Positions 64 through 64,000 of a stretch of DNA of 64,000 nt are shown in pieces. Under the pieces are notes generated by a model. It worked only from the letters and a program-made list of their open reading frames with translations, was not told the origin of the DNA and made no database searches. The first letter of the stretch is position 1. The number at the start of each line of letters is the position of its first letter. The DNA lies in contig CM119267.1 in the NCBI GenBank assembly GCA_051294375.1, positions 6,065,992-6,129,991 on the forward strand, in the 5' to 3' direction. The position numbers and the translations under genes are program-made. The stretch comes from Paraspadella gotoi. Taxonomy: Eukaryota; Animalia; Chaetognatha.

Positions 64-1308
64 TCACTTATCGCGATAAACGTTCATCGCGGCTCTGTGA
101 ACAATGGTGTGTCTGAGGGAGACGTCGCCCCACCAGTCGGAATAACCACCACCGATCACGGTGGCAACGGGAATGCCCCGCTTGTAGAGGTGGTTGAGAA
201 CGTAGTGATCGCGGTCGAAGATGCCCTGATCGGTCATCGACAGACGCCCGAGCACATCGTCCGCGTGAGTGTCGACGCCGGCGTCGTAAATAACGAGATC
301 GGGAACGAAGGTGTCGACGATTCTCGGCAAGTTTTCGACGACACGCTGGAGGTATTCGGTGTCGCCGACGCCATCTTCCAATGAAATGTCGAGATCGGAT
401 TTTTGTTTTCTGAGCGGAAAATTTTTGGCGTTGTGGACGGAAAAGGTGAAAACGGAGGGATCTTCGGCAAAAATAAAGGCCGTCCCGTCGCCCTGGTGCA
501 CGTCAAGATCCACGACCAGAATCTAATAAAACAAAAATGATAAAGATGTTTTTTTTTTCCTTCTTTCTTTCTCTCTCTCTCTCACCTTCTCGACCATCTC
601 AGAAGCCACCATGAATCTCGCCGCAATCGCAATATCATTTACGAGACAGTATCCAGCGCCGAAGGAGGGAAAGGCGTGATGCGTTCCTCCGCCCGTGCTG
701 CAAGCGATTCCAGTTTCCAGGGCGAGTCGACAGGCGAGGATGGTGCCACCAGTCTCTAGCCTACAACGACGCACCAAACCGGGCGTCCACGGAAAACCCG
801 TACGGCGCCGTTCCTCGTCCGTGGTGAGACCCCGAAAGAACGAGTGCACGTAGACGGGATCGTGCACCAAAGCGCAGATGGCGGCGGGCACGGGCGGCGG
901 CCTCACTACCTGCCGCTTCTCGATCACCCCGTCCATCATTAGGTAATTAAAGAGCCCGTCGAATTTGCCCATGACGAATCGGTTGTTGGCGGGAATCTCG
1001 CAAACGAAGCCGTGATGATGCACGACTGGAAGGGAGCGCCCGAAGCGAAGATGCTCGTCGCAAGCCGCCGCGGCGAATTCCAAGTCGACCGGGCCGCCAG
1101 TCCTTGCGTCATTCTCGGAGAGGGTATCGATGTCCAATGAGTTCGGGTTGAACGAGAGGGCCGCATGGTGAGACGCGCGAAAGATTATAAGTCTTTTAGA
1201 GAGAAGAGTCTTTATCGAAGAGAAAAGTTTAATATCATTCCTGGGGTTATTAAATTCAACATATGACCGAAAAGAAAGGTATTTATTAAAGTGGCGGCAT
1301 AAAGCCAT
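64..1308 (-). CDS. Histone deacetylase family protein (HDAC11/HDAC12-like, AcuC/AphA-type), 2 exons, intron ~523-585
   Basis: ORFs 523-1308 and 64-513 join across a GT-AG intron. HDAC motifs GGGTHHA, GYCLVND, DLDVHQGDGT, YDAGVD.H.DD.LG and GGGY are present. Confidence 0.9.
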
Positions 1309-1691
1309 TCATTAATCTGAAGTAAATTTAAATGAGAGAAATGAGGTTATCACATTCTTCTCGAGATTCAAAATCATTAACATTTTATGACTATGAGAAC
1401 ATTAATTAAACATCCAATAAATATATTTAGGTTAAAAGTGGTCACAGATACAAAAATCAAATGGGGCTCAAAAAACTTCCCATCCTATCAATAATCAATG
1501 TCAATTTTGTCCAAAAGTCAATAATTTTGTTAATAAAAAATGCACTAACAAACAAACAACTTATTCTTAGTAAATATGATCGTCGGAATCGGAACCCATG
1601 ACGAACCACATAGTATACGTACACTAAAGTGCAGTGACTCAAAATTCTCAACAAATGCATGTAAATTTTTTTAGAATATCAATTAAAAAGT

Positions 1692-2933
1692 TCAAAATTT
1701 CCTATCAGGCCACCAAATTTCTGCCAAAGCATCGTTAAAACTAATTCCTTCCAACACCTGAAGAGAATAAGCCAAGGCTTCCGGCATCCATACCCCCAAC
1801 AAGTAATCAACGCTTTTATTATTTAGTGTGTCGGTCCCGAGGATCCGTTTCATTGTCCCTTTGAGAGTCTTCACGAGTCGATCGACGTCCTCGTCACGTC
1901 GAAACGGTCCGAAATTGTTCAACTTGAGAGGCTTGAGTAACGACGGAGAGGAATCGAAGAAAACTTTAAGGCACGACTTTTCTCGGTCCTCGTGAATGGC
2001 CCTCAGTCTGGCCCGACATTCGTCCGAAGAGAGAAATTCTAATATTCTCTCTAATCGTCCGTTTTTCGATTCTACGGCGGCTTCCATCTCTTTACACAAG
2101 TTTCGCCGCCCGCGCTTCCCGTCGTCGTAAACCTCGGATTTGGACGGATTTTCAACTCCGAACTCGCGATTATTATTAAAAGGTTCATCTTCGCTATCTT
2201 CCTCCCCAAGGCCGCTTGTGAGAGATGCCTGACGATCGACTGCGGGTTCCGCCCTCGCTATTTTCGATTTCTTGATGTCCGGAGAGAAGGAAGAAGGATC
2301 TTCTTCATCCCGACAATCGTATAACGAATACAACGAACCCGGGATTTTGGCCAAATATTCGAACACGTCTAACTCCATCGAGCCCTCGGCTCTTTTGCGA
2401 AGAAAGTTGTCGAGCATGCCGACGGCGTTTTCGAAACGAAGTCCGTGTTTGGATTCGCCGTCGGTCAAAAAGTATCTCCTCTCTCGACATGACCAAGGTT
2501 TGATGGAGTTGAGCGCTATACGGAAACCCTTTGAGGCGAGAGAACGTTTACGGTCGCAGTCGTCCGTCCACACAATAGTGGCCGCACGGCGTGATTTGTA
2601 CACGTTCTTCACAACGGCGGGCCACCAATCGTCACGGTGCTTGGCCCAGATTAGGTCCCCGCGTTTGAAGAGAGGCTTCCGGTTCTCGACCGACGGTGTT
2701 AATACGCAAGGCAGATCAGAGTCGTCCGAACTGCAGGAAGACGCGACTTCGGCGGTTGGAACAAGAGGAAAAAGGTTAGGAAGAAATTGACAAGCGAAAG
2801 ATTTAGCATTCCGTGTCAATGATGTCGGGAAAGAGCCGAGTCATTTACCGGTTGACAGATCCAAATCGCGGTCATCTAAGGTCCCGTTCGTCCCGATTTC
2901 TTGAGAGAGGGCTTCGTCGGAATCCAGTTCCAT
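1692..2933 (-). CDS. PWWP-domain protein, MUM1/PWWP3A-like
   Basis: PWWP motif GDLIWAKHRDDWWPAVV and a MUM1-like C-terminus (LGVWMPEALAYSL). Probable first exon starts at ATG 2933 (MELDSDEALS) and ends at a GTAAAT donor near 2848; the acceptor is uncertain. Confidence 0.75.
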
Positions 2934-3382
2934 CGCTTTCAACGTGATTGAGCAAACAAAAAAGTAAAAGGTAATAAATAATAGTGTAAAAATAGCGAGA
3001 GTTTAAAAACTTAATCAATTCGTAAAATACAGAGGAGAACAAAAACTAAGAGAAGATTCCAGAGATTCCAGAAAAAAATTTCGTTTTATAACATATTTCA
3101 TAAAAAAAATTACTGTTCTAATGTAAGAATGAGAAAATTTATAATCTCCAAAAGCATCACTAATAATTTATAAGCATTTTGACCAAAAAGTTACAGATAA
3201 ATTTTGATTACAAAACAGCTAATCTTCAAAACTGCAAAAAAGACCTTTTGTAACTAAAAAGGCGAAAACCATTCTTTAATTCGGGGCAAATAATTATTTA
3301 AAATAAATTATTGTGGCTTTGACCTTTATAAAGAAGTTGGCGTGATTAATAAAAGAACTAAAAAGTAAATGAGTATTGAGTA

Positions 3383-4619
3383 GGGTAGTGCGGGGTAATT
3401 CGGAACACTTTTGGATGTATTCATATTTTTCACATAGTAAATTTATTTTTTCTAATTTTTTTTCTGGTGATATATCGAGCAGTGTCCCCGCTACGTTTTT
3501 ATCCTGTGGCCGCTAGGGGCCGCATTTTTAAAAAAATTGAAAAACGTTCAGTTTTACCCCACCCTGGGGTAAAATGGAACACTTAATATATTATGAAATC
3601 GGTACAACCAATATAAAAATTATCCATTCATTTAATAAATAAGTTATCTTGCCCCTGACTTTGGACAGGCTTTGGTAGTTTAAGGCCTCCATCACTCTTA
3701 CAAGATAATGACATAGCAGGTCCCTGCAAGCTTTCAATCAAGACTCTCTCACAGTCTCCTTTATTCACTCCTTTACAATATAATAATAATAATATAATAT
3801 TACAAAATATAATGACTAAAACATTATTATTTGGAGTATAGAGCTCCTAATTGATAAAAAAAGTATAAAAAATTTTAAATCTTACATTTTTTTCATTCCC
3901 GAATATCGTCCCCATCTTTCCTTTCAATTAATATTGGTTTTTTCCCCATTTTTAAATTTCCAATGTTATTTTTTCTTAATCTTTTTATTTATAATTTTTA
4001 TTTATCTTTTTAAATTGTATTTTATTTTTTATATTAATTTCATCTTAATTTTGTCTCAAACTAATTTTTAAATTCTATTCCAAATTTTTGTATATTTTTT
4101 ATTGCTAAAAATTGATTTTTTACTGTAACATTAATAGTATAATAATTTTTTTCTGCCTAATTATTTAACAAATGTTTCTAACTGTTATCAATACTTAGTA
4201 AATTATTACTAACACGTTATAAAAAGCATATGAGGTAACACAGAATACTTACTTTACAGGTTTACAAGTTTACAGTTGTTCCGTTTTACCCCAATTTAAT
4301 TGTAGCTATAATTGAATTATTTTTTCGAAATAATCTATTCAATAACTAAAAATTAGTAGTCTCGTCTCGTCGTATCATATATTAATATTCCATAATCATA
4401 TTACTTTAAATGTAACGGTGAATAGAGGCTTGAAAACGACTACTCAAAGACAAAATTTGATAAGCAGCTTTCAATGCTGTAACTTTAATAATGGAAAGTT
4501 AAGTTAGTGAAATATTTAATGCACCAAAAAAATGATAAAATATCTTCAAACATTTTTTTATTTCATTTTATATGTCAGTGTTCCGAAATACCCCTGTTCC
4601 AAATTACCCCGCACTACCC
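3383..4619. mobile_element. Non-autonomous TIR DNA transposon (MITE, pogo/Tc1-mariner-like)
   Basis: Left end GGGTAGTGCGGGGTAATTCGGAACA and right end TGTTCCAAATTACCCCGCACTACCC are inverted repeats with 1 mismatch. TA lies on the left flank and TC on the right. Internal GGGGTAAAATGGAAC-type copies occur at ~3546-3582, ~4278 and ~4578. No transposase ORF. Confidence 0.85.
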
Positions 4620-4746
4620 TCTTTCAACTATGTATCAAATCAAATCTATCTACGCTGGTTATTTTAAGCAAGAACAGGTGTAAAGAAGCATGGTGTAACA
4701 TTAAGCGGCTCCTTTCAACCGGCATTTTTTTTAAAAGGTTTTCCGT

Positions 4747-6031
4747 TTAGAGAAGATTGTGATCTATCCTAAAGCGCACAATCTGTTTCCACCAATCCCG
4801 GACTTCCTCGATCGAATGTTTGTGAGACGCGATAATTGTCGTTGCGTAACGTTCCGAATCGAACTCCACCCGTCCATTGTAACCAAGGAAACCGGGCACT
4901 TGAACCCTTTCGGTACCCAAGTACATTCCTGCCACGACGCCAGTCCAATAAACGTCCTCGACTGGAAGCATGCGCACGCGTGGGTAAGCGAGTAGGAGGC
5001 GCTCGACCGTCCTTCGCGATGCGACGTAACAGGGACCGTGTATGTAATCGGGAAAAACGGAATGGGGATATAGGAAGAAAGAGACCGCCCATTGGTCGAA
5101 GATGGATCGTCGGGGCATGCAATTGTGGCAGATAGAGCCGCCTGAATACAAAATAATGCAACCTTAATTTGGTCGAATTATTGTTTTTAAAATGATGCAA
5201 CTTAATTTGGTCGAATTATTGTTTTTAAAATGTTGTTAAAATGTTTTTAAACCTAAAAATTCGACGTTTCTATCAACGAAGAGATTGGTTTGATGAAAGT
5301 AATCGATAAGAGGAAACGGGTTGAAGAAAACATCAGAGTCAACTTTGACCAGAAAACTGGAACCGGAACAATGAGTGGAAGCCCAAGAGAGTCCGTGAAG
5401 GACTTTTCTCGTCAAGTTTTGGTAAGTGTCGTTCAGATCCGCGAAAATAATGTCGTTGTTGTCTGCGAACAAAAAGCAACAGTAATGATAAATAAGAGCA
5501 GTGAATAAACCCTGATCAGTGATCACGGATTACGTGCCTTTGGTCTCGTACACCAATTCGGCAATATCTCCTTTGGGTCGACCGAGCAGAAAGAAGGTGT
5601 TGACTTTCGTATCGCGATAAACTCTTGGCAAACCCCAGGACGTCCTGATGGTTTGGCGTCGTTCGTGCTCGTGCTGCTGACTTAATACTGTCAATATAAA
5701 ACATTAAATATTAAACGCTGAATATTAAACAATCCGAAAATTTTTTGTCCCCAAAATTACCCAAAATGGTCAAAGCGTAGGAGCTACGAAATTCGCACCG
5801 AGGCACATTGTTTCGGTCGAGAAACCCGTGAAGAGAAACATTGAAAGACTGGCAAGGGGTTTCGTCGCAAAACAACGGCGGCGAAACGAGTCTGGCGAAG
5901 AGGGGAAGCAGAAAAAAATATACGATGAGGACGACGCTGAAAGAGACGAGGGAGCAAAAAACGTTGCAACGCCTCCGACAAAAATAAGGGAAGAAACTCA
6001 TCGTTATTGACGAGTTTCGATCATCGTTCAT
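4747..6031 (-). CDS. Beta-1,3-galactosyltransferase / GlcNAc-transferase (GT31), multi-exon
   Basis: N-terminal TM anchor followed by DTYQNLTRKV, FLVKVDSDVFFN (DxD motif), FPDYIHGPCY and EDVYWTG across ORF fragments separated by short introns. Confidence 0.85.
5156..5232. repeat. Two-copy tandem repeat (~38 bp unit) in an intron
   Basis: atgcaa(c)cttaatttggtcgaattattgtttttaaaatg occurs twice in tandem. Confidence 0.85.
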
Positions 6032-6175
6032 TTATCGATCGTTCAATGGTTTCTTCATTTTTTCGCAAGTGACCTCCGAGCTGGGCTCTCGTAAGCGGCA
6101 TTTTTTTCCCAGCCTGCTAAAGAACATTTGGAACAATAAATAATATTACAATTTTAAAAGCATTCATAGATACAC

Positions 6176-7059
6176 TCATGTCCAATTTTTTAAGATAAAA
6201 TCCACAGCTTGAGAAAAGTTATCGCAGGTGGCATCAGGAGGAATATTAGTCTTTCTTTCGTCACCGTCTCGATATTTTCCAGTTCTAACGAGGATGCCCC
6301 TGAGTCCGATTGCCATGGCGCCGGCGACGTCGTCCTTGACGTCGTCGCCTATCATGGCAACTTGGCGCTCCTCGAGCGACTCGTTCCCACCCGCTCTAAG
6401 AGATTCTAGCGCGGCGCGGAAAAAAGCTGGCTCGGGCTTGCCGACAACATCAGCGACAACGCCGGTGCAATATTCTAGCCCGGCCACGTAAAGGCCAGGA
6501 CCTGCGCGAAGACCGGAAGTCGACTTGTAGTACCTTGACGAGAAGTTAGACAAAGTTGATCGGAAGTTCATAGGCCAGACTTTTCAAAATCCTTTCACCA
6601 TCACCTTGCTTTATGTATGGCGATGAGTCGACCTCCGTCCAGCAACACATTCATAGCCCGCGACATGTGGGCGTGGTCGAAACGTTCCGGCGCCAGACCA
6701 ACGACCACGCTGTCAGGGCTGTCTACCTCAACAGACATCCCTTCAAATTCATCCATCGCCGCGTCGTCGATCAACAGCAGTGGACGCAGCCCCTCCCGCT
6801 CCACCTTGGCTCGGGCCGCGGAGAGCGAGGTGAGAATCTCGTCGTTGCCAATTTTAAAGCCGAGAGCGTGGAGACGTTGGAGCAAGCGTCGACGGCTCTC
6901 CTTGGTCGTGTTGGTCACGAACTTGAGGGCAACGCCCTCCCGCCGCAAACGGTCTACGGCCTCTCGACATCCGGGAATCGCCTGATCGTCCACGTGAAGT
7001 GTCCCGCTCAAGTCTATGAGGACGGCTTTGATTCTGGGCGAGGAGAGCGAGGACATCAT
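6176..7059 (-). CDS. HDHD2: Haloacid dehalogenase-like hydrolase domain-containing protein 2, intron 6534-6604
   Basis: Motifs DLSGTLH, FVTNTTKES, IHKAR|YY across a GT-AG intron, VVGKP and MIGDDVKDDV. Confidence 0.93.
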
Positions 7060-7212
7060 GGACCTGAACAAAATTTGATGTTTATCACGGGACATGTTGG
7101 CCACGAAAGGAAGACGCATGTCTAAAAACGAAAAATTACATTGACAAACGAAGACGATAGATATAAATAAAAATTCATCGGTCGAGCGGCGAATAAACGT
7201 CTATCATGAGAG

Positions 7213-7635
7213 TCACAAGGCCCAAGGCGGAGTCTCCGATTCCCGTGGGGCTCCGGAAGAGTTCGAAGGAGCGGCGGCGTTCCCATCGCCCGCGGCGCCG
7301 CCGACCCGGGCGTCCACGTCGTTGTCGTCGTCTGGACTCTCGTGATCTTCCATGAGGTCGTCGATCTCGTCGTCGTCCTGCGACTCGCTCTCCTCTCCCT
7401 CTTCCTCGTCGTCGTCGTCGTCCTCCTCCTCATTGTTGAACTGTTCTGCGGCCGACTTGCCGATCGGGGGAATATCCTGCCCCTGGTTGCCCAGACCGTC
7501 CAACCAACTCTGGTGGCGCTCCTCTCGTTTCGATAGTTCCGCCTCGTCGTCCGAGGGACGGTCCACCGAGACCCAAGTTGAATCGGGAAAGGGGGGAGTA
7601 AAACTAGGAAAGATTCGAGAGCCCGGGAACTGCAT
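7213..7635 (-). CDS. ANAPC15: Anaphase-promoting complex subunit 15
   Basis: FPSFTP...W..VDRPSDDEAEL...E..HQSWL...IPPIGKS followed by an acidic tail. Confidence 0.85.
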   Translation of the reverse strand: MQFPGSRIFPSFTPPFPDSTWVSVDRPSDDEAELSKREERHQSWLDGLGNQGQDIPPIGKSAAEQFNNEEEDDDDDEEEGEESESQDDDEIDDLMEDHESPDDDNDVDARVGGAAGDGNAAAPSNSSGAPRESETPPWAL

Positions 7636-8176
7636 AGTTTTTATGAGGCTTTGTTTTGAAGGTTCCAAAACAAGAGTAACTACTTTACGAAAAAAATGCA
7701 ACAGCATTATCAATTAATCCGAAAAATAACACGGTTAAGAAATATTTTTTAAATAAAACTTTTTTAACACTAAAAAAAACATATTTTTTTGGTAAACATT
7801 CTGGTTGACTTCCATTATCGTACGATAGATTTAAAATTAATTCTCCCTAATGACTTGGGAATCTTTATTTGATATATACTATATAGTGATTAGTGAAGCG
7901 ACAAGAAGCAAGTAATAAAATTTCAAAATTAGAAGGTCCTATCGATAATTAATCAGTAGTAAATGCTTTACATATCCAAATTGGAAAGGATAATGATCCA
8001 AATAAGCTTGAAAAAAAATTGTATCGATACTTCAAACCAGTTCTCTTACAATACTCTATAGAGTAAATCAAGGTTCTAATGAGTATATTATATAGAACTC
8101 CCTAATTCAGTACATACTTAAAAAGGATTAGACAATAGACATGTTTCAGGGTCTTAGTATTGAATATTGTACATGA

Positions 8177-11100
8177 TTATTGCTGGTTAAACAACTGCAA
8201 ATCTAATTTCACAACTAGTTCTCCCTTCGAAACTTCGTTCAAGGGAACGTGCTTTGAAATGGGACCGCGCAACCTTTGATCCCTCTCCCTGAGAGAGGCG
8301 TGGATGTCTTTGATTGAAATTTCCGATCTCCCCATGAAATCGTCAGGGGTGAAATAATCCTTGTCGTAAACCGTGAGACAAAGCACGTCCTGGTCCAAAT
8401 CGTGAACTAGGAATTGCATGGAGGCGTTCCAGGTTGGACTGAGAGTCCTCTGCGCGACCTCAGTCCGATTTTCCTGCGACCCCATAGTGGCGTGGCAATA
8501 GGGATCGCTAAGTCCGTTGTCGTCCCTGTCGACTAGGTCACGGGCTTCAACTATGGTGATCAAGAGTCGCCCTACTGCTGGGATCTTTTTTGCAGACTCT
8601 TTTTTGGCCTTTAACTTCTTTTCTAAATCCAAACAACTCTTAGAAGCGTTAAGGATCTTACGAACCCAAGTCAGTCTCTCGTTGCGCGAATGCGCCTTCA
8701 GCAGTAACGGCTGACGCTCGGGACCCACGTTCAGCTGGAAGACTGTTTCATCCTCCTCGGAAAAAGTGGAAACCTCGACTTCGTTCAAGAAAATAGGCTG
8801 CCGATAGGTTTTCAGCTGCATGTCGGCTTCGACGTCCATTATGAAGGGCTTGTTTAGAGGCTTGACGGCTTGAGTGAGCAGCAGGAAATCGTTGAAGAGA
8901 AAGCCAACCAACTCTTTGTTGCTCTTCACCTTGGTCACGGTGCCCGCGTGAAGAAACTTACGCGGGCCGAGTGAATTTGTTAAGGAATTAAAGACTATGG
9001 ATTCTGACGACGATACCGATTCGCTGCTTCCTTGGGATTCACATTGCACGTGACTTTGGAGCCATTCCAAACGCTCCGTGTTCTCTTTTTCTCTCACTCC
9101 TTCGTTGACTTGGACGCAGAGCTCGTCCGCCTTCTCTGCCGCCTCTTTAACATACTCGTAATCAGGATGCTTCTCTGGCGTGTATTTGAGAATTTGCTTG
9201 ATGAGCAACGGATATTTGGTGATTCTCTGCATCGGTTTCAAGAGAAAACTGCTCAGTGGCATGCCTTTGGCCGAAGGATGTTGGCTACATCTCGACAGAG
9301 CCTCTTTGAAAGTAGAGTCTTGCTCGAGTCTGCGTTGAATAAAAGTGGAGGCTTTTAATTGACAACTGCAGTAGCGAATATAGGATGCAAAGTGCGGCAT
9401 GTTCTCGCACAGGATATCCCCGATCATAATGATGTCAGCCGACCCTTGTTTCTTGTTCTTTTTACACATCTTTTTTCTCACTCTCAAGGCCCGCAATAGC
9501 TTGTCGTTGGCCTGAGATATTTCGTGCCAGTTGACAAATATTGCATCGATCTCCTCGGGTGCCAAATTCGACGAGAGAGGTCGCCGGAATACCTCCATCA
9601 CTATGGAAATGTCGGCATGGTAGGCCTCTTCAGTTTCTATGAGCTCTAAAATGGCGGCTTGTCGGTGGGAAAGGATACCTCGCTGATCATCGTCGAACGT
9701 GAAATCGCTAGACCCCCTCGACGATGAACGAGCGACGTTCTGGCTCTCACCCGACGCGGTATGCGGCTGCACGTAATTGGCGGGAAACAGTCCCGTGCTC
9801 TTCACACGGGAACCGAGATCCCCCTCGAGCAAGTCGCCCCTCCACCAATCGACTTCATCCTTCTGCACGTTGGTGATCAAATTTCCCTTGAGGAAACTTA
9901 GTTCGTCGTCGTTCATCGCAGTATAATTGTAAAGGGCGACGACGGACTCTACGGGCACTCCCATCGAAGCGGACTGCGGACTCGCGGAGGTGCTGGACGA
10001 TGTCGCCGCAGCCGCTGAAGCCGCGGCTGCAGCGATGGAGACAGGTTCCGGGTTTGGCGTCGTGGAAGAAGAGCGTCCTTCGACGATCCGCTCAATTTTG
10101 ACGTAGTCGCCAGGGAACCAGCCAACCTGTCGCTTCTTGCCTCGAATCTGCAGCTCGCCCTCCCACCAACCCGAAGGATTCTTCTTGCGCACTGCCACGG
10201 TCTGTCCTTCGACGAGCGAGAGTTGCCCCGAGCCAAAGGCCTCAAAAGAGGCGATGGCTGTTGCTAGTTCTAATTCGCGTGTGCGACCGACGCTCTCTCT
10301 TCGAGATCGAGATCGACTCTCGGCCCGAGAGTCACCTCGAGAATCTCCCCCACTTTCGCTTCCCAGGCGAGTGGAACGGCCCGATTTTGAGGACCCCTGG
10401 GGTGTTTGCTTGCCCGTCGGGACGTCCAGATTTCCCGTAGGATGCTCCGGCTTTGGAGGTGTTGGTGATGGCTTGACGATGGGTTCTATCTCTCGAACGT
10501 AATTCGCAGGAAAGATGCCAGTTTTGTCGGCGAAAGTACCGGTCCACCAGTCGCCATCTGCGACAGAAACTTCAATGGTGACGCCAACGTCGAAATTTAA
10601 ATCTCCCGCCTCCGACGAGTAAAAGGGATAAAGAGAAACACAGCGCCGCACTGTGACAGTCTCGACGCCGGGAGCGACGCGGATCGGAGTAGCCGATCTC
10701 TCCGGAGCTGCGGCGACAGCTGAAACGGAAGGAGCGGTCGGGGCTGGCGTTAGCGTGGGTTTGATATCGAACGGCGAAGCCTCAAAGGCCGATGAAGCAT
10801 CGAATGCGGGCGTGGAAGACTTTGAAGGTGGAGTTGCCGACGCTGCCGCCGCCGCCTCGAACGAGTCTTTGATGGCGGAGACGCTCTTAGCGGCGGAATT
10901 CTGTGGCGGCGAACTCCACGTGTCGTTGGCAAACGGATCCTTTGGTTCAGTGGTGGTGACTGCGCTGGGTTCGCTTGTTGCCATACTATCCGTTATTTTC
11001 TCAACGTACGCTTCGGGAAACCATCCTGTTTTAAGACCCAGACGACCGCCCATCCATCCCGGATCGGCGTCCTGATTTTCGTCGACCTCCACAACGTCGC

Positions 11101-28065: not shown

Positions 28066-28066
28066 G

Positions 28067-50408: not shown

Positions 50409-51010
50409 TTTCGTTAGGTTTTTTAATTCTTTATGTATCTTCAATTCTTCCACTGTACTATGATTGCCTTAATCACTTGCGGAGTCACTTTAGGTATTTG
50501 TCCATGTCATCACCTTTCTATCTACCTTTGTCACCTAAATACTGTAGTTATTTATATTTCCGGTGGGTCTAGTCATCACAAACGGATATGAGCCTTGTAC
50601 TGACCTAAATTTATATCTTTGACAAAAGCTAATAGCAAGAATTCTTTGCTAGATACTGTTTCCTCCTCGTTGTTTCATCTGAAACAAAAATGAATGAGGC
50701 AATTTTATTTGTTAAACAAAATTTTTGTCTTGGAACCAGTTTTGTAAGCTATATGCTTGACGCATTCAAAGCAGCTAGTCAAAACTAAAAATTATCTAGT
50801 TATATGGCTCAGATTAATATACTAAATACAATGAGTCACGTAATTTTGCTGTTATTTCTGGAAACAACCAGTGCAATGGTTTCCTGATGCAATCTCACAA
50901 TTTAGTCGTTAAATTTGAGGCCGCCGAGTTTTAGCACAGATTTCGTCGGCATCTCTGCCGATGGTAAGATTTAATTTACAACTTACTTGATTTTTTCGTG
51001 AAGCAAAAAA

Positions 51011-53203: not shown

Positions 53204-53364
53204 AATTAAATCATTGGAACTTGGAATTGTTCCGATTATTGAATCGATTTTTCTTTTATTTATTTCGTATTATTTAACTGTGATATTTTTATCTTCAAAT
53301 TTAAAAAAAAAAATTGTGACATCTTTATAGATTAGGGCTAAGACATACGTATATATTATACACT

Positions 53365-55179
53365 ATGGAATCGGAAATATTGTCCGAATCCGACTCAGCA
53401 ATGGATGGCGCCAAATGTGTTTTGGACGATCTGTTGGAAAAACTGGAGCCCCCGCCGATTATTCCGCTGATTCCACGAAAAAGTCATTCAAATTCACACC
53501 TTGGCGACAACGACGCAAAAAAAGAAGAACAATGCAACGGATATCCTGAACCAGAGGCACTAGCCCCGAACATTCCTCCAACGGATATACTGAGCCTTCT
53601 GGATGAAAAGCTCCATCACAACAACGATACAACCGACAAATCTGACCGAAAATCCATTTGTTTTTCTGAAGAATCTCAGCCGGGTCACAAAGCGAAAAGA
53701 TCTCGCGAAAACGGAATTTCTGAGGCTTCCGAGGCCGACGAAGGCTCATTGTTGTCCCCTCAAATTCAATCCCGTCCCAGTTTGTCGGCAACCATTTCTC
53801 AACTCGCCGCCCGAGTCTCTTTCATCGACACACAGGAAAACGAAGACGACGACGAGGACGATGATGACGGAGACGCCGTCGATGCGGACAGGACTTTCGA
53901 TAAAGTTATTCAGAAAGAGAGCGCAGAAGATAGCGTTGAGAAAAATAGGAATATAGACAGCAACTTCGAGAACGACAAGGACGACAAGAACAGTGAGCAT
54001 GAAGCGGACAAAAGCGCCCTCGATGACATTCAAAAAGGTGCCGACATGGCCGAAAGCGTTGACGATTACGTGGAGACTAACATTAGCGCTGACAGTGAAA
54101 TGAAATTAGAAGAGAGCAGCAAAGTCTCCGAGAGGGACATTGACGCCGATACACCGCCAAGAACAATGACGAAAGACCAATTGAACGACGCATTAAAAAA
54201 AAGGTTTTACGACTTTGTCAGCACTCTTTTCGAAAAAGCCGAGAGCATGGAAACTCGGTTTTCTCATCTTGAAAAGATGACCGAGGCGCTCCGGCGACGC
54301 CATCGGGAGCAGGACAAAACGTTGATGAAGATTGAACGCACGACGAAATCTAACGATCGTCGTGGAGGCTGCCGGCACGTGGCGTGCCAGACGAACCTTG
54401 GCGGAGGATCGTTGATCGCCGCTCAAAAGATGTCGCGCGGTCCCAGTCGACAGCCGGCGCCGGCCGGTTCCGCGGGAAGACATCCTGGTAACTCGGCAAA
54501 GCGGAATCAGGAGGTCGTGGATTTGACGGACGAAGACTCCGGTCCCGCCCTGAAGCGCCCCGCCACCGCCCATACACAGGCTTTTTCCCAGTCCGGTCAA
54601 GTCCCAGTGTCGAGCAACGCCGCCTTGCAACGCCTGGTAGACTCGGGCGCCGCGAAATTCGTCGGAGGCGCCCCAACAAAACCCTCTTCTCCGGCGAACG
54701 TCCCTCTGCGGTCGGTCACGAATCAACAGGTGGGACTAGCTTACCTTCAACAGTCGCCAGCCCAGCCGCCGCCCGGCATGCCGTTGCTCCTGGCTAAGCA
54801 TCCCGCACCCCTCCCGTCACAACCCGTGTTGATGGTGTTGGGCGCAAAGCCGACTCCTCCCAAGCCATGGCTGAAAATCGAGCTGGTACCGATGCAGCAC
54901 AACCGCGGAGTAATGCTTTCGTGGGACATTAACTCCGACTTGAGCGTTTTCTCCAAGATCGTCAAGTATCAGTTGTTCGCCTACCAAGAGACGGTTGCCA
55001 CTCCCTCACCGAGCCTGTGGAAGAAAGTGGGGGACGACGTGGCCGCCATGCCTTTGCCCATGGCATGCACTCTTTCTCATTTCTTGTCGGGGAATCGATA
55101 TCACTTCGCCGTTAGAGCCATGGACGAACATTCTCGCGTCGGCCCTTTTAGCGACCCGCAGTCAATTTTTTTAGATTAA
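53365..55179 (+). CDS. ATF7IP: ATF7-interacting protein (MCAF1/Windei; SETDB1 cofactor), intronless
   Basis: Acidic N-terminus, coiled coil, SIM-like VVDLTDED and a C-terminal FnIII domain (GVMLSW...YQLFAYQE...WKKVG..AMPLPMACTLSHF...YHFAVRA.D). Confidence 0.9.
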   Translation: MESEILSESDSAMDGAKCVLDDLLEKLEPPPIIPLIPRKSHSNSHLGDNDAKKEEQCNGYPEPEALAPNIPPTDILSLLDEKLHHNNDTTDKSDRKSICFSEESQPGHKAKRSRENGISEASEADEGSLLSPQIQSRPSLSATISQLAARVSFIDTQENEDDDEDDDDGDAVDADRTFDKVIQKESAEDSVEKNRNIDSNFENDKDDKNSEHEADKSALDDIQKGADMAESVDDYVETNISADSEMKLEESSKVSERDIDADTPPRTMTKDQLNDALKKRFYDFVSTLFEKAESMETRFSHLEKMTEALRRRHREQDKTLMKIERTTKSNDRRGGCRHVACQTNLGGGSLIAAQKMSRGPSRQPAPAGSAGRHPGNSAKRNQEVVDLTDEDSGPALKRPATAHTQAFSQSGQVPVSSNAALQRLVDSGAAKFVGGAPTKPSSPANVPLRSVTNQQVGLAYLQQSPAQPPPGMPLLLAKHPAPLPSQPVLMVLGAKPTPPKPWLKIELVPMQHNRGVMLSWDINSDLSVFSKIVKYQLFAYQETVATPSPSLWKKVGDDVAAMPLPMACTLSHFLSGNRYHFAVRAMDEHSRVGPFSDPQSIFLD

Positions 55180-55689
55180 TGATGATTAAAATTCGTGTTC
55201 ATAACTTACGTTTAACCTTATTAGTTTCTTTGCCTGTACGGTTTCTTTCTCGACGATTTAAAATATTATTTATCAACTTTTTTTTTTTTTTTTGATCGAA
55301 TGTGAAATTGTTTTATCAAATTTTTTTCGTAACAAATAATCTCACCTTCGTCCTGAACTAAAACGCACATTGATTCGAAAATGTTTTAAATTATTTTTTC
55401 TTACTTCATCGGTTTCTTTATTATCGAAATACAAGCATCTTTATTTTTTTTCATTATGGATTATAGTTTTTCGTACTTGAATAGCGAAATATATTAAAGA
55501 TGTTCGTTTTTGTAGATAAAAGAGTTCGAAACCGGCTAAATTAGATGAAAATGTATGAAAATACAAGTTATGTTATCAAAATACCAGTACAGTTTACAGT
55601 CAATTTCTGCATATTTCAAAAAAAAAATTGTTTTCTCCCCCCAAGTTTGATTTAGATTTGGCAAAAACTCAAAAAAACCTTTGAAGAAA

Positions 55690-56055
55690 ATGGCTTATAA
55701 AGGCGGGAAGGTTCAAAAGGTGATGGTGCAACCGATCAACTTGATCTTCCGATACCTCCAAAACCGTTCGCGAGTTTCCGTCTGGCTATTCGAAAACGTC
55801 AACACGCGAATCGAGGGCCACATTATCGGATTCGACGAATACATGAATCTCGTGATGGACGGAGCCGAAGAGGTAGACAATTTGCCCTCCGAAATCGCGT
55901 CGCCAAATTGAAACTAGATTTTTTTTCTCATTTTTCAGGTCCACATGAAAAAAGGAACGAGAAAGACGGTGGGAAGGATCATGCTCAAAGGTGACAACAT
56001 CACGCTGCTGCAGCAGATCGACGGCGGACAAGAAGGCGCAGCTGCTCCTGAATAA
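55690..56055 (+). CDS. SNRPE: Small nuclear ribonucleoprotein E, intron 55873-55938
   Basis: [18 protein letters not shown]...[10 protein letters not shown] and [13 protein letters not shown]. Confidence 0.97.
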
Positions 56056-56225
56056 TCCTTATTATTAATCATACTATTATTGTCGTTACTCTTGTTTACG
56101 GCAGCTTTCCATTTCGAATTGTTTCCTTTCATTCGAGTTATTCAATATTCATTCAGTTATATTACTTTATCATCCAAGAAACGTTTACTTTTTTAAAATG
56201 TCCTAGACCCTTTAGCGTCGCTGAA

Positions 56226-57605
56226 ATGTCCATAAACGTCCTGCCGGTGGAAATACTGTTAAAGATCTTTAAATTTTTAAAGCCCTCGGATCTCAATCGC
56301 ATGGCCTTAACTTCAAAATGGTTTCGAGACGCGGTGGAAGTCGATTCTCTGTGGGAAACGAAAATTCGTGAAGCTTATAATCTAAATCCCACCGATTATA
56401 AAATTCCGGAGACGTTTCCTGTTGTGACGGCCAAATCTTTTTATCGATACGTGTTAGCCAAATACGGCAATTGTCTCGGATTCTGGCGCCGGAAACACTT
56501 TAGAGGATGCCTCCTCATCATTTACGTTCGAGGGGGAGAAATGGTAGGGTACAAAGTTAACCCTCCTAAAAGATTTCACGACGGCGTCGACAAGACGCTC
56601 TGCTTCAAAATTAAAATGAAAGGAGTAGATGCCATCGAAATTGAATATTACTTCAATGGAAATTTATGTCGAGGAACCGATATCGATATCAGATACAGTA
56701 ATGGGGACGAGGAATCGTTATTAATCATGACTTCCGATCTTAAACATACTCATAACAGGTAACGTGAAGGAGTATGTAAATTGTACTTTTGCATTGTACA
56801 GTGATGGTCATGATATAAGTTTTATTAGGTTACCCTAACATATGGAAAATTAGCATTGAAATTCATGCTCAAGATAAGCTCAAGATAAACTCGAGATAAA
56901 ATTTTAAATGTAACAGCATGTTTACCTTCGGTTACTGTGACCGTCCCTGGCCGATCGATTACGCCAAAACTGCCGGTCACTTTTTCGTTCAGCAAACGCG
57001 GAACCTGTGATAAGACGGAAGCGTTCGTCCCAATCGGAGATTGGTCCTCTCCATCACGTATGCCAGCTAGGAAAGTTTGTTCTTTGAAACCCGGAATGTA
57101 CAAAGGGAGTTACAGAAGCGAAGGGATCGAAATCGTCGAAGTATTCGTCAAATCGGATTCGCTGCTCTTGGGCAAAAAAATCACGGGCGATCAATACGTC
57201 CCTGCTGGAGAAATTAGCTTCCGAAGTCGATTGGACGCGCCGCTTCATCCTCGGGTCGACCAGATGCAGCGAATGAACTCGTTAAGATTAGTCTCGATCT
57301 GTCAGAATTTTGACTGCCGTTGTCCAAATCCGTTTCCTCTTCAGCCTTTTCGGGTGCCTTTGGATTGTTCTGTGGACGTGCCCGGGTTCCCTCATCCCTC
57401 TGAGGCCAAGGGATGGTTTTCAGCTGAGTACAGAGTTGCATACCCTCGATTTACCAATCCCGAATGGGTGCAAGCTCATATGGTAATTTTCAGCGAAAAT
57501 GAGTTTGCTATGTTTTGTTTCCAGCTAAACGACAGAGTTGTGTTCAACAGTCTTGCGTTTTATACCAAGTTGAAGGATTTTGATAAAATGCCATTTGATA
57601 AGTAG
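56226..57605 (+). CDS. FBXO31: F-box protein, FBXO31-like, 2 exons
   Basis: N-terminal F-box plus C-terminal KPGMYKGSYRSEGIEIV...GKKITGDQYVPAGEISF, typical of the cyclin D1-binding domain. Confidence 0.8.
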
Positions 57606-57934
57606 ACTTTAATGTTGCCTTTATAACTGTCATGTATTTTTTTGCCACGCTTCTGACGTTTTTCCGTTAATATCATTAAATTTGTAACACCTGTTTTGCT
57701 TTGATTTCCATTTTGATTTTTTTAGATTTTAATATTTTTAGATATTCTGACAGCATTTGTTGCTGGGTAAAAAATTATTAACATTTTTTTTCTTCACCGT
57801 TTTAATTTTATTATTGCACTTTCATTGACTTTTAGACTAAGTCACTTACCCACTGATCTCAACTAACGCCCAATGTATGCTTTCAATCAAATGTCTACGT
57901 TCCTCCATTAACGTTATTCTCGAAACGGAACGCG

Positions 57935-60900
57935 ATGGCAAAATCTTCTCCCCTGCCTTTTTTTGTTGACGAATATTGCCCAAACGGGACGTCGCCTTCT
58001 ATCGCCTGGGCGGACGACGGTTTAACCCATTGCTTTATTGACACCGTCTCTTCCTGTCTTCTTTTCGGCCTCTTGCTGATTTTTGGGTCTCTCGAAATAT
58101 GGGTTTATTGGAAATATTCTACGCAAATTCGGCGCGATCAGCGACCGAAATCGGCCTTCTTCCTCTTCCAGATCGTGTTCACAGCTGCGCTGACTCTCCA
58201 CTATATCGTTTACTTATTCTTGAGACTATTCTTCCTTCGCGACCGCGAAATCTTCGGATACATGATCGTCGCGGCCACGTTCACCATATTGACGTACCCG
58301 CTCTCTCTAGTGGTGATTCTGCTGGAGCGTCGGCGCCAGTTGCCGTCCATACCAACGCGCGGTCACGGATTTGTGTTGCTGATCTTTTGGACGCTGGCCT
58401 TCGCCAACGAGAACCTCGCCTTCGTTTCCATCTATGGATCGACATGGTTCTGGCGTCTGTCGTCAACCTCAGACAGCGTCGAATTTGCTCTTTTCGTCGT
58501 GCGTTACGCGGCGACGCTCTATCTATTCGTCGCCGGCTTTTTTGCTCCGGGAATTCCCAAGTCTTCGTCGCTGACACGAAGATCCTCCTACCACAACATG
58601 CGGAACCATGGGGATTTGGGTGAGTCCAGCTCAGGATCCACCTGGCGAAACCTGGGGAGGAAGCTCAAGCTCATGTTCATATACATCTGGCCAAAACGAT
58701 CCCTGCCGCTGCAGTTGGTGGCCCTATTTTGCTTCACTCTCCTCATCGCCGGTAGAGGAATCAACGTAATGGTTCCCATTTACAACAAGTACATCGTCGA
58801 CGATTTGTCGACGGCCATAGGGCGAGACGACAAAGGCAAACCCATCTTTCGATTCTGTTGGGACTACATTCTAGTCTACGTTGGGTTAAAGTTTCTGCAG
58901 GGCGGCGGCGCTGGCGCCTCGGGCCTGCTGAACAACCTTCGCTCATTTTTGTGGATTCGAGTGCAGCAGTACACGACTCGTGAGATATCCGTCTATTTCT
59001 TCGGACATTTGCATAGTTTGTCGTTGGGTTGGCATCTTTCTCGCAAGACCGGAGAAGTTTTGCGGATCATGGATCGAGGAACAAATTCGATGAACAACCT
59101 CTTGAGTTATATATTTTTCAACATCGCGCCCACCATCGTCGACATAGTCATCGCCATCGTTTATTTATCTTCGGCTTTTAATCTATGGTTCGGGCTCATT
59201 TGTTTTCTCACGATGGCTCTTTATCTCTTGGCCACTGTTTTAGTCACCGAATGGAGGACGAAATATAGGTATGTGATTAGTTGATTACTCGGGTTTTTAT
59301 TATACACTTAGAAATTTCTTTAACTATCTTTCTCCTCTTTCCAAAAGACGCGCGATGAACAAAGACGATAACGATCGGAACGCCAAAGGTGTCGACTCTC
59401 TCCTTAACTTCGAGACTGTCAAGTACTATGGCGCCGAAGACTACGAGGTCGGTCGATACCGCGACGCCGTCCTCAAGTACCAAGTCTCTGAATGGCTTTC
59501 CAATGCCTCCCTGGCGGTACTCAACGTCGTCCAAGGCTTCGACATCAACGCCGGCCTCTTGGCGGGCTCTCTCCTTTGCGCATACATGGTGGCCAACGAT
59601 ATCCAGGGTCTGACTGTCGGCGACTACGTCCTCTTCGCCTCTTACATCGTCCAACTATACGCTCCGTTGAACTGGTTCGGTACATACTATCGCATGATCC
59701 AGCAGTCTTTTGTCGACATGGAGAACATGTTCGAGTTGTTGGCTCAGCAGCAGACCGTCAAAGACATACCAATGGCGCCTGAATTGCGCCTCGACAACGG
59801 CGCCATCGAGTTCCGCAACGTGCACTTCCGATACGTTGCAGACAAGGAGATCCTCAAGGGGGTTAGTTTCACCGTGCCCAAGGGAACGTCTCTTGCGTTA
59901 GTGGGTCCATCGGGCAGTGGAAAGTCGACGATCATCCGCCTCCTCTTCCGCTTTTATGACGTGGACGATGGAGCCATTTTCATTGACGGACAGGACGTGT
60001 CAAAAGTAACGCAAAAGTCGCTGCGGCAGTCAATCGGCGTTGTGCCTCAAGATACGGTTCTGTTTAACAACGACATCCGTTACAACATTCGTTACGGCAG
60101 AGTAAATGCCTCGGACTACGAGGTTAGTTTCTTTTATTATTTGCAATGATGCTGTTGTCGTAAATGTAGACCGACTAATCCCCCACTCTTTCAGGTAGAG
60201 CAGGCGGCCATCGCGGCGGACATTCATGACAAAATCCTTTCTTTTCCCGACGGCTACGAGACGGTGGTTGGAGAACGGGGGCTGAAACTTAGTGGCGGAG
60301 AAAAGCAGAGAGTAGCCATCGCCAGAACCATTTTAAAGGTACGTTATATGGGCATAATTTTACTTTCGCCGACTGGGGTAAGGGAATTTAGGGTTAAGTG
60401 TTGGAGGGAAGTGGGTGAAATCGACTCGTAAGGATGTCCCACAGAAACTTTGGAGTGAAAATAATACATGGAATATGAGGGTATTGGGGGAGCACCGTGC
60501 TATTTGCAGAGGCGGACTTGCAAATAAACCGGTGGAGTCGTGCCACACGAAGAGATGGTTGATCAGGCCAATCTCCTCCGACTTCTTAAGCAGGGATATC
60601 TGTTGAGCCTGTAGTCAAGTCATCCAAATAATACCACGCGACAAAGTGTTACTGGCAATCGCAGAGGCCTGCCGTCTCTACAACGTCGAAGCGTTGGACT
60701 GCGCAAGGACACTCCAAAAGAGCCAACCAAGTCTCAAGCGCCAGCAGTATCTGGCTCTAGGACAAAGCTCGGTCGAAATCCACAGAGAAAATGATATTGA
60801 AATGAAAAGAACCAAATAACTTCACAGTCTAGCTGAACACAAGGCTATCAAAACAGCAGGACTGCTGATGGATGAACAGTCTCCAATCCACAGTGCCTCA

Positions 60901-62020
60901 GAGTTGACCCGAAAGACTTATGGGTAACAAAGCACGCTTCCGAGAATGTAAGCGTGTGAACTGTCGACAGTGGGTGCTCCACAAAAGTGGATAGGACGGT
61001 GCACCACTGTTGGAGGCGGATTTTATGGGGATTCGCCAGCGGGCGAAGGCGGCTCGCGTCAGGTGGTATTGGGATCGCATCGGGGTCTCCCACATCGTCC
61101 TCCAAACTGAGTCTGAGCGGGCGGCGCAGTCGACAGAAGCAATAGTCTTATCGTATGGATCTATGAGATATGAGAAGCACACAATATGACAGGGAGACGC
61201 TGACCAAGAACTGTGTATTCTGACACTTATCATTTATACATATAAAGCACGATAATCATTTATCTGAAATGTAAACAATAACAAATAAGGTAAATAAAAG
61301 CAATCATTATTTATATTTTTATTGAAGAACAGTTCCTTAATTGTTCGTAGCAAATTGTTCTTCATCTCGAGTCCTTCGATGTCCGCACGAATTTGTCTCC
61401 AACATAAGGGTGGTTTAGGAGTGGTTTAAGGTGATTAGGGCTCGGTTGTTTAAGGTTAAGGTAATCAGGTAATACATTTTTTTTTGAATTATTTCTTTTT
61501 TTAAGTAGTTTTTTTAAAAAAGCCAAATAAGGCAATAAAACGAATATTTTTTAAGCCATTTTTACTTGTAAACAGATTTAGTGTAACTGAAGTATTTTCT
61601 CAGGCCCCCAGCATCATCCTTCTCGACGAAGCGACGTCGGCCCTCGACACGCAGACTGAGCGGAACATCCAAGCGGCGCTGGACGTGATTTGTAAGAACC
61701 GGACGACGGTGATGGTCGCTCATCGTCTTTCTACTATCGTCAACGCCGATCAGATCCTCGTGCTTAAAGAGGGCGAGGTCGTTGAGAGAGGTCGCCACGA
61801 GGAGCTCCTCGCTGCCGATGGACTTTACGCCGGAATGTGGAACCAACAACTGGAGGCAGATTCCGATGACGCGCGCGAAGGGGCGGATGACGAGAATGGA
61901 GACGACTACGACGGCGGAGAAGACGGTACCCCCGCCGTGGCCGAACTCGCTCCGACGGAAGTCGCCGTCCGAATCGAGGGGAAGAAGTCAGGCCAGGAAA
62001 AGGGCGATGAGAACGTTTAG
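57935..62020 (+). CDS. ABCB6: ABC half-transporter ABCB6/HMT-1, 4 exons
   Basis: TMD0 (YCPN...CFID), [47 protein letters not shown] and [10 protein letters not shown]. Confidence 0.96.
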
Positions 62021-62315
62021 ATAGGATATCGGGTTACGTTGCGCATCATCTGTGTTGTATTAGTTGTATTAGTTCGGAATAAGAAATTCGTGTTTCTTAC
62101 TGCTGGTTTTGTTCTATTTTATTGCGGGATATTTTGTTTATTTACCACCGTTACGTATTTCTGGTCTTATTGTTACGTAGGTTTTTTTTAATGGTGTCGA
62201 GTAGATAGTACCTTTGTTCTAGCTAAATTTACTTGTATTTTTGATTGATTCACGTTTAGAAATTAGGCAAAAATTTTAGGGACAATGAAATGGGAATTTG
62301 GAAAATAGAATAATA

Positions 62316-62918
62316 ATGTCCAATAGAATCGGAAAGCATAAGACCTCCTCTACGGACTTGAGAATTTTGCAAGAATGCGAAAAAGAGGCCTTCGTCAATA
62401 AAAGCCTCCCTTTGATGATCGGTATGGGTGTCGGAACGCATTATCTCGTCAAAATTGGCAAACTGACCGCCAATCCGAAGTGGGGATCCTTGGTCAAAGT
62501 GAGCTTCGCTGCGCTCTGTGGCAACATTCTCGGCAGACTACTCCACATCGGGACGGTCAAGGAAAAGCTCAAGGCGGAACCCAACTCTTTGCTGGGCCGA
62601 GAATTACGGCGCATTGAGGGCTCCCCGCTTCTTGAGCCCACGGATCTAGAAGTTATCGATATTCTGCGTTCGGAAACCCAAGGGCGAGGCGAGGCGAGTC
62701 GGGAAAGCGGCTCGTTGGATCACGGTTACGACGAAATGAGGCGCCTGCACAGAGAGAACCCGGCCGCTGTGGCGCCTTCTGTTTCGGAACGGATGAATAA
62801 ACCTGTGAGGGACTCGATTCAAGGTTCTTTTGACGACATCCCTCCGGAGGAAAGGCCTATCAACAAGAGGATGCCCGTTCCAAAGAGGAACAAATACGGA
62901 GACATCATCGACGACTGA
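62316..62918 (+). CDS. OCIAD1: OCIA domain-containing protein (Asrij)
   Basis: ILQECEKEAFVNKSLPL...PKWGSLVKV..., NSLLGRELRR, YDEMRRLHRE and the C-terminal RNKYGD. Confidence 0.85.
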   Translation: MSNRIGKHKTSSTDLRILQECEKEAFVNKSLPLMIGMGVGTHYLVKIGKLTANPKWGSLVKVSFAALCGNILGRLLHIGTVKEKLKAEPNSLLGRELRRIEGSPLLEPTDLEVIDILRSETQGRGEASRESGSLDHGYDEMRRLHRENPAAVAPSVSERMNKPVRDSIQGSFDDIPPEERPINKRMPVPKRNKYGDIIDD

Positions 62919-63136
62919 GTTTTCCGCGATGATTGATGCTTTTTTAAGTTTTTATTTATTTTCGATTGTTGCCAGTCCGTCAGATGCGACGTCTCTTTCG
63001 GACGTTGTATCGTTTTCCTTGGAATCGAACCCTCGTCCCTTTTACGCGAAAGGATTCTTTTCGTGGCAGAATTTACCTGCCGAGCCTCGAACAGACGATC
63101 CGCACAAAAGCAGGATGGATATCGATAATCCACGCG

Positions 63137-64000
63137 ATGTCTTCCCCCGAAACGCGTAGCCTTCTCGAAGATTTCGAGAATGAAGCGGGAAAGAGCAGTC
63201 TCATTCTACCTCATTACCGGCAACACCACAACTGGGACTGCGGAATCGCCTGTCTCAAAATGGTCAGCATTTCCTCCAACCCTTTCATTTCACTTTTTAT
63301 TTTTGACAGTTTGCTTTTTCAAAATTTCATGAAAATAAAAGTTTTTTTTTCTCAAAGCAATTTCCCCCCCCCCACTTGTCTTTATCCGCTTAGGTCCTCT
63401 CTCATTTGGGCCTAAACGAAAACGATGAACTGTCGACCCATTGCGAAAGGCTCGGCTTAAAAACTTCGATCTGGTCGATCGACTTGGCCTACATCCTCGC
63501 CGCATTCGGCATAGACCACAAAATGTTTACCCTCACGCTCGGCGTGGACGAGAACTACCAAAGCGTCGGGTTCTACGCGGAACATTTGAACGAAGACAAT
63601 TCCCGCGTTAACGCCCTCTTTCGAGACAGCAGCCTCCACAACGTGAGAGTCGCCAAGGAATCCGTCGAAACGGAGGCGATTCTACGTCATTTGGAAAATG
63701 GTCAGATCGTCGTCGTCCTAGTCGATTGGAAGAGGATGGATTGTCTCAAATGCAACCCGTTGTACGATTTGAAGATGAGGAGATCAGTCAGCGAACTAGG
63801 GGCCTTTAACGCCGGTTATCAAGGTTCTCTGATGTTAGATTCTTAGAATAATTTTTTTTTATTAATAGCTTTGTTCGTGTTTAGGCCATTTTATTTGCCT
63901 GACGGGAGTGAACCGAGAGAGGAGTCTCATCTACTTTTCGAATCCTTCTTCGGCGCAGTCCGTGTGCGTCTCTCGCTTCGTGGATTTTGAGGCGGCGAGG
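63137..64000 (+). CDS. GUCD1: Protein GUCD1 (C39 peptidase-like), truncated by the window end
   Basis: PHYRQHHNWDCGIACLKM, SIWSIDLAY, FTLTLGVD..Y and YQGHFI. Confidence 0.9.

Follow-up and report, generated by a model that had tools for sequence, protein, structure and literature searches.

The window analysed here is a stretch of 64,000 nucleotides (nt) from the chaetognath Paraspadella gotoi (contig CM119267.1), and it is filled by two long runs of co-oriented genes that diverge from a single strand switch (Table 1). Six-frame open reading frames (ORFs) and Pfam matches assign 12 genes to the minus strand (64-27771) and 16 to the plus strand (30840-64000), the switch lying at 27.8-30.8 kb; all 28 genes conform to this arrangement, each of the 26 same-arm junctions is co-oriented, and the outermost genes touch both edges of the window, the GUCD1-like gene being truncated there. 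Pfam supports 12 of 12 genes in the minus arm and supported 15 of 16 in the plus arm in the first scan, the THUMPD3-like gene being added through two exons that match UPF0020. The names of BTBD1/2 and MAPKAP1 come from homologue searches and those of the remaining genes from Pfam domains and recall; several start codons were picked by eye. The two-arm layout of the 28 genes is confirmed as real: every position and strand claimed in an earlier note on this DNA was reproduced, with backing from Pfam.

Coding introns, mostly short, are present in 16 of the 28 genes, and the other 12 are single ORFs; seven introns are RNA-supported and 27 further acceptors are inferred. By Pfam, the genes fall into RNA processing, ubiquitin, mitochondrial, metabolic and trafficking functions, a housekeeping content that includes no DNA-binding developmental regulator, and neither Rfam nor ARAGORN finds an RNA gene in the window. 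Hidden antisense genes are ruled out for the ORFs that were scanned, as none of seven antisense ORFs matched Pfam in the first scan and none of 108 gap, intron and antisense ORFs did so at the curated cut-off (best E 0.006); the 108 comprise 85 of the 87 ORFs of at least 50 amino acids (aa) found across 14 gaps or introns (the remaining two had been scanned earlier) and 23 antisense ORFs, a subset of all those present. With random orientation, one switch or none in 27 junctions has a probability of 2.1e-7, so the earlier figure of about 2e-7 was arithmetically correct; the value becomes 7.7e-7 once two tandem paralogue pairs are collapsed, and 0.0008-0.03 if a same-strand persistence of 70-80% is assumed, all of these being uncorrected for selection because the window was chosen out of a large scan.

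Table 1. Genes and other features of the 64,000-nt window
Feature	Coordinates	Strand	Basis or remark
Minus arm of 12 genes, a candidate long operon	64..27771	-	
Histone deacetylase, presumably HDAC11-like	64..1308	-	Pfam Hist_deacetyl
MUM1/PWWP3-like	1692..2933	-	Pfam MUM1-like_PWWP
Galactosyltransferase, B3GALT-like	4747..6101	-	Pfam Galactosyl_T
HAD hydrolase, HDHD2-like	6176..7119	-	Pfam; stop to next ATG 74 nt
ANAPC15	7213..7635	-	Pfam ANAPC15
Intersectin, long form (EH, SH3, RhoGEF, PH, C2)	8177..14008	-	Pfam
NHL-repeat/thioredoxin-like, NHLRC2-like	14466..17940	-	Pfam
Acyl-CoA-binding, ACBD5-like	18123..20195	-	Pfam ACBP; uncertain start codon
F-box protein, low GC, no coding intron	20299..21666	-	Pfam
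BTBD1/2	21803..24238	-	Pfam and homologue search
TMPPE-like metallophosphoesterase, copy 2 (TMPPE2)	24604..26022	-	Pfam
TMPPE-like metallophosphoesterase, copy 1 (TMPPE1), first gene of arm	26437..27771	-	Pfam
Splice acceptor before TMPPE1, cis or trans	27824..27827	-	X1 record 1 starts at 27824, first exonic base
Nested repeats	27834..29907		X1 depth ~1000-1600; left end also in two introns
Strand switch, inferred bidirectional promoter region	29908..30394		5' end of X1 record 2 placed to 30395
MAPKAP1 non-coding 5' exon and cis intron	30395-30669, 30670-30816	+	GT..AG joint in X1
Plus arm of 16 genes, a candidate long operon	30840..64000	+	ends at window edge
MAPKAP1/SIN1	30840..32471	+	Pfam and homologue search
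THUMPD3-like methyltransferase	32618..34962	+	five RNA-supported introns, one GC-AG
UQCR10/QCR9	35071..35289	+	Pfam
RRM protein, PABPN1-like	35520..36412	+	Pfam; one RNA-supported intron
OXA1-type insertase	37235..38575	+	Pfam 60KD_IMP
CCCH zinc-finger protein 1 (CCCH1), 1515 aa, single ORF	38955..43502	+	Pfam
Unpaired acceptor before CCCH2, likely trans-splice site	44011..44014	+	start of X1 record 4
CCCH zinc-finger protein 2 (CCCH2)	44071..45765	+	Pfam
SAMM50-like (Omp85)	46080..49608	+	Pfam
Ubiquitin-conjugating enzyme, UBE2A-like	49836..50408	+	Pfam
Enoyl-CoA hydratase, ECHDC3-like	50961..53203	+	Pfam
ATF7IP-like	53365..55179	+	Pfam fn3_4
Sm protein, SNRPE-like	55690..56051	+	Pfam LSM
FBXO31-like	56226..57605	+	Pfam
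ABCB6-like transporter	57935..62020	+	Pfam
OCIA-domain protein	62316..62918	+	Pfam
GUCD1-like, edge-truncated	63137..64000	+	Pfam Guanylate_cyc_2

Evidence on transcription comes from assembled contigs of a single run from one study (X1), placed on 26401-46300, whose RNA nature was judged from skipped introns; the splice joints considered are the 15 listed (there are 38 further) and the loose ends the 18 rows listed (366 further). Seven introns are absent from X1 at these joints (six of the GT-AG type and one GC-AG), so that the run is at least largely RNA; it holds 0.89 of the words of 30800-40500, for which spliced RNA with spacers predicts 0.87 and DNA a value near 1.0. The most informative contig is record 3, a 9,953-nt sequence covering 32731..43709 on the plus strand, which runs through the THUMPD3-like, UQCR10, PABPN1-like, OXA1 and CCCH1 genes without six introns and with the spacers of 108, 230, 822 and 379 nt all retained, the 822-nt spacer being the second longest in the window. 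The order and orientation in X1 agree with those of the window over 33.3-43.7 kb, with three letter differences in the listed pieces. Two runs from other organisms, X2 (41 records) and X3 (27 records), contain short single-gene pieces, listed at the PABPN1-like gene and CCCH1, and carry no information on gene order.

Two other X1 contigs begin exactly on splice acceptors. Record 4 starts at 44014 on the plus strand, the first base after a CAG and 57 nt before the CCCH2 ATG, and record 1 starts at 27824 on the minus strand, also the first base after a CAG and 53 nt before the TMPPE1 ATG; neither has any loose letters at its start. In an assembly graph of 31-letter words a contig begins where two upstream paths converge, and this geometry is base-exact at the start of record 3, where 32731 lies 30 letters before the split between spliced and unspliced forms at the donor 32760. 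A contig start immediately after AG therefore implies a second upstream piece whose last base is not G. In the window 31 of 34 cis donors are preceded by G, and we infer that a leader ending in A would produce both contig starts; most animal leaders outside the chaetognaths end in G. TMPPE1 is the first gene of its arm and its acceptor is possibly cis, so that one internal site alone, that before CCCH2, supports trans-splicing. A repeat edge was considered as the reason for the contig end at 27824 and rejected, since in that case the contig would continue into the repeat for about 30 letters.

The first ATGs of the two arms are separated by 3,068 nt, most of it nested repeats, and the non-repeat part of the switch amounts to about 0.5 kb at 29.9-30.4 kb. 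X1 record 2 joins the non-coding MAPKAP1 exon by cis-splicing to 30817, and because this exon lies there the first plus-strand gene starts within the switch; the 5′ end of the record at 30395 has 49 extra letters that are unplaced. Within the non-repeat part, purine-rich tracts at 30132-30158 and 30347-30396 lie on either side of a run of 20 T and a stretch rich in C, a candidate promoter signature.

The spacers between stop codon and next ATG, untranslated regions (UTRs) included, range from 74 to 1813 nt with a median of 304.5 (n = 26), with 12 of the 26 shorter than 250 nt and 24 shorter than 600 nt. They are AT-rich, and on the sense strand T exceeds A in 23 of 25. AATAAA occurs in six of 25 spacers, its nine copies comparing with 9.8 in shuffles. 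TATTTA, a possible substitute 3′-end signal, occurs in 18 of 25 spacers where shuffles give 9.4, a difference that is not significant after correction for all hexamers. A fixed acceptor of the nematode type, TTTCAG, was rejected, with six counted and 4.1 expected. To the 50-70 nt before each of the 28 ATGs we applied an acceptor matrix derived from 33 cis acceptors (six RNA-supported and 27 inferred), and the scores exceed those of dinucleotide shuffles, in which the observed mean was reached by 3 and 6 of 200, as well as post-stop and antisense controls (P 0.006-0.035); the RNA-proven MAPKAP1 acceptor scores only 1.0 bit under the same matrix. Predicted acceptors of internal genes include 35477, 37192, 38900, 46023, 6113, 7121 and 26034. 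Strong donors are scarce within spacers, with one found and 5.7 expected (P 0.022), the CCCH1-CCCH2 spacer contains no donor of 5 bits or more, and record 3 uses no donor-like site in the four spacers that it covers. YAG accounts for 1.9% of spacer positions, and a search of the window for a chaetognath-type leader gene found none.

It is quite probable that some form of spliced leader (SL) operon accounts for these features, and we give about even chances to the fuller proposal that each arm is a very long operon initiated at the switch and resolved into single mRNAs by SL trans-splicing; we take the feature to be, probably, an animal SL operon of unusual length. Under this proposal a bidirectional promoter near 30.0-30.4 kb would initiate two operons back to back, polymerase would pass most gene ends, and the downstream genes would do without promoters of their own. 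An unpaired AG acceptor some tens of bases before each downstream ATG would take the leader, which probably ends in a base other than G, and the upstream 3′ ends would be made near that acceptor, mostly without AATAAA. New genes (the low-GC F-box gene, the TMPPE pair and the CCCH pair) would be retained solely if inserted on the same strand, and the runs would lengthen as a result. The least supported step is the whole arm as one end-to-end unit. In the earlier note the arms were proposed to be polycistronic units, and to this the five-gene spliced contig, the 5′ UTR exon in the switch and the internal acceptor start lend indirect support, which does not extend to a single unit per arm.

Several observations weigh against the proposal of two very long operons. 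Seven of the 26 spacers exceed 400 nt (414-1813), among them B3GALT-PWWP3, CCCH1-CCCH2 and UBE2A-ECHDC3, and these could have room for promoters. The acceptor signal is visible in aggregate, but per-gene P is below 0.05 in just two of 28 genes, 7-8 of 28 genes lie above the median cis score compared with 3-5 of 26 controls, and the CCCH2 acceptor scores 0.4 bits; weaker donor-like sites are present in five of the six spacers examined with a 5-bit threshold. At TMPPE1 the acceptor is possibly used in cis in the ordinary way, joined to an exon in the switch as for MAPKAP1, and polymorphism could mimic either contig end. No leader-like sequence is seen among the 18 loose-end rows listed. A contig across genes is not the same as a single transcript, X1 may include DNA, and either DNA or overlapping UTRs could bridge the spacers. 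The X1 contig is broken at CCCH1-CCCH2, no single listed record spans the MAPKAP1-THUMPD3 junction, and the contig continues through each of the four bridged junctions at the point where a leader would be joined, although tip removal might explain this continuity. RNA coverage is confined to the X1 region, which reaches no further than TMPPE1 in the minus arm and 46.3 kb in the plus arm.

The main rival, to which we assign a lesser but substantial probability, invokes the same SL mechanism, with each arm a chain of operons of two to six genes, internal promoters in the longer spacers (hybrid operons), and strand persistence within a housekeeping cluster. The longer spacers fit it, as do the interruption of the X1 contig at CCCH1-CCCH2, the outcome of a strict 250-nt stop-to-ATG rule, under which the longest chains have four genes, and the published maxima of nine (PMC12460157) and seven genes (PMC7986045). 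However, the 822-nt spacer is crossed by a spliced contig, the CCCH2 contig begins on an acceptor rather than showing a free 5′ end, and independent operons would be expected to flip strand, which none of the 26 same-arm junctions does. It is unlikely that the genes are instead monocistronic, each with its own promoter in a compact genome and co-oriented through selection against convergent transcription, the long contig being joined by overlapping UTRs, read-through or genomic DNA. Contigs are indeed not molecules, DNA is possibly present in X1, the MAPKAP1 5′ UTR is cis-spliced in the ordinary way, and no leader appears among the loose ends listed; but spacers of 74-146 nt would have to fit a promoter in addition to the 3′ UTR of one gene and the 5′ UTR of the next, the word share of X1 is close to that of spliced RNA and under that of DNA, and two contigs start precisely on acceptors. 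Such genes would also be expected to form divergent pairs, of which just one is present, and animal directons average about two genes (10.64898/2026.07.29.740908).

We consider it very improbable that record 3 represents a stable, leaderless polycistronic mRNA translated through re-initiation or internal entry. Its complete cis-splicing over five ORFs, unbroken at four junctions, is what such a molecule would give, but record 4 begins exactly at an unpaired acceptor, assembly logic by itself is able to yield such contigs, and five long ORFs are rarely translated by scanning ribosomes. Chance or an assembly artefact can be set aside almost entirely: the window was selected from a very large scan, but the random-orientation probability is 2e-7 to 8e-7 and X1 independently confirms order and orientation over 33.3-43.7 kb.

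Homologues of BTBD1/2 and MAPKAP1 were compared using the best 120 matches to each. Among these, the BTBD1/2 protein shows 90-91% identity with three JGI/Logan proteins, and its identity with proteins of named animals does not exceed 78%; for MAPKAP1 the corresponding figures are 44-57% (five JGI/Logan proteins) and 39%. In trees of 31 (BTBD) and 20 (MAPKAP1) chosen rows, the latter a quick version, the window and JGI/Logan proteins group with full support outside the sampled molluscs, annelids, brachiopod, insect and deuterostomes; the sampling contains no named chaetognath, nematode, rotifer or tunicate, and the BTBD tree places the window outside a deuterostome clade in which no tunicate is sampled. 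A metagenome scan returned seven loci with BTBD relatives, none of them with another of the 36 window ORFs tested. The ratio of observed to expected CpG is above 1.1 in 18 of 20 coding segments, which are thus undepleted.

Some further properties of the genes and repeats deserve mention. TMPPE1 and TMPPE2 are a tandem pair with 55% identity, and CCCH1 and CCCH2 (38955-45765), which are lineage-specific, have in common a 75-aa block that is RRM-like in appearance. CCCH1, which contains RG-rich repeats, is conserved in a relative, since a contig of run X3 can be aligned to its DNA; its scores in the ESM Atlas are all at or below 0.80. GC content at third codon positions (GC3) is 0.29-0.36 in the F-box gene, the TMPPE pair, CCCH2 and the 3′ half of CCCH1, compared with 0.55-0.73 in conserved neighbours; the low-GC3 segments are 20299-21666, 24604-27771 and 41001-45765, the composition of CCCH1 shifting mid-gene, and these genes are possibly young intronless insertions or duplicates absorbed into the run. 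The RNA-supported GC-AG intron of the THUMPD3-like gene lies at 34624-34718, and GC donors are inferred at 13495 (intersectin) and near 46273 (SAMM50-like). Within the large intron of the ABCB6-like gene (60339-61602) lies an insert of higher GC content that has short ORFs but gives no Pfam match, possibly a decayed retroelement. One non-coding repeat is present in three copies (27834-28065, 46950-48637 and 51630-52579) with tandem arrays of 19-23 nt, all in equal orientation relative to transcription and each placing the same end some 10-60 nt before a 3′ acceptor (TMPPE1, SAMM50-like and ECHDC3-like); it may target T-rich tracts and possibly resembles Helentron-associated or DINE-1-type elements. 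The longest spacer, the 1813 nt between the B3GALT-like and PWWP3-like genes, carries at 3370-4620 an inverted-repeat element and a piece in common with the 28.1-28.3 kb repeat, and without the inserted repeat material would measure about 0.5 kb.

Animal operons have been described as short islands, with maxima of seven to nine genes (PMC7986045, PMC12460157). If the proposal of two very long operons is true, the arms, with 12 and at least 16 genes served by a single bidirectional promoter, would be longer than the animal operons reported to date, would show the extent to which an animal can forgo gene-by-gene promoters, and would suggest that operon length has been undercounted through distance cut-offs; they would also provide a metazoan test case for the passage from small operons to trypanosome-style directons. 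We advance only tentatively, as a somewhat doubtful extension, that an intron-bearing animal has independently evolved toward a trypanosome-like architecture, with its housekeeping genes grouped, from a dozen to dozens at a time, in divergent polycistronic units longer than 30 kb that share switch promoters and are trans-spliced largely without AAUAAA, and this genome-wide and probably phylum-wide. We found no published report of animal directons this long from one switch, in a search that was mainly at abstract level and left most subscription literature uncovered.

The earlier note had discounted animal operons as too short to serve as a model, a view we do not retain, as the animal SL operon of chaetognaths and tunicates fits closer and the published maxima rest on strict distance cut-offs. 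In P. gotoi itself 18% of genes are reported in operons, the longest of nine genes under a 250-bp rule (PMC12460157); six gene names from the window are absent from three supplementary PDFs of that paper. The SL operons of Spadella cephaloptera (PMC2481426) and P. gotoi likewise consist of close co-oriented housekeeping genes, and in the single chaetognath operon mapped only three bases separate the upstream poly(A) site from the acceptor that follows. Every leader tabulated for two chaetognaths has A as its last base (PMC2481426 Table 3), in agreement with the non-G end inferred here, where no leader was seen among the loose ends listed. Chaetognath gene bodies are unmethylated and tandem duplicates occur (PMC12460157), and the window likewise has undepleted CpG and tandem pairs; the difference is one of length, the longest operon reported having nine genes and the two arms diverging from the switch here having 12 and at least 16. 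The operons of Ciona and Oikopleura are also leader-resolved, with little or no intercistronic gap, those of Ciona reaching seven genes compared with 12 and at least 16 here (PMC7986045). A near-zero gap of this tunicate kind would explain continuous RNA over the spacers.

Operons of Caenorhabditis elegans are not known to hold more than about eight genes and depend on AAUAAA and a fixed TTTCAG acceptor; in the window, by contrast, AATAAA is at chance level and the acceptors are variable. The SL2 operons of C. elegans have housekeeping genes in common with the window, and gaps of about 100 nt (PMC7986045 Table 3). A survey of 525 animal genomes gives about two genes per directon, compared with a genome-wide average of about 30 in trypanosomatids (10.64898/2026.07.29.740908). 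The kinetoplastid-like character proposed in the earlier note stands for layout and mixed gene functions, as in trypanosomatids too unrelated genes form long directons that diverge from a switch, with AAUAAA scarcely evident, but fails for gene structure. Trypanosomatid transcription starts only at switches, base J marks the ends of the units, and every mRNA is trans-spliced; here the MAPKAP1 acceptor is joined in cis to the first 5′ exon, and the 5′ end of that contig carries the 49 unplaced letters. Trypanosomatid genes are largely intronless, whereas 16 of the 28 window genes have coding introns and the first plus-strand gene has a 5′ exon spliced in cis; with so many introns, the arms are not units of the kinetoplastid type.

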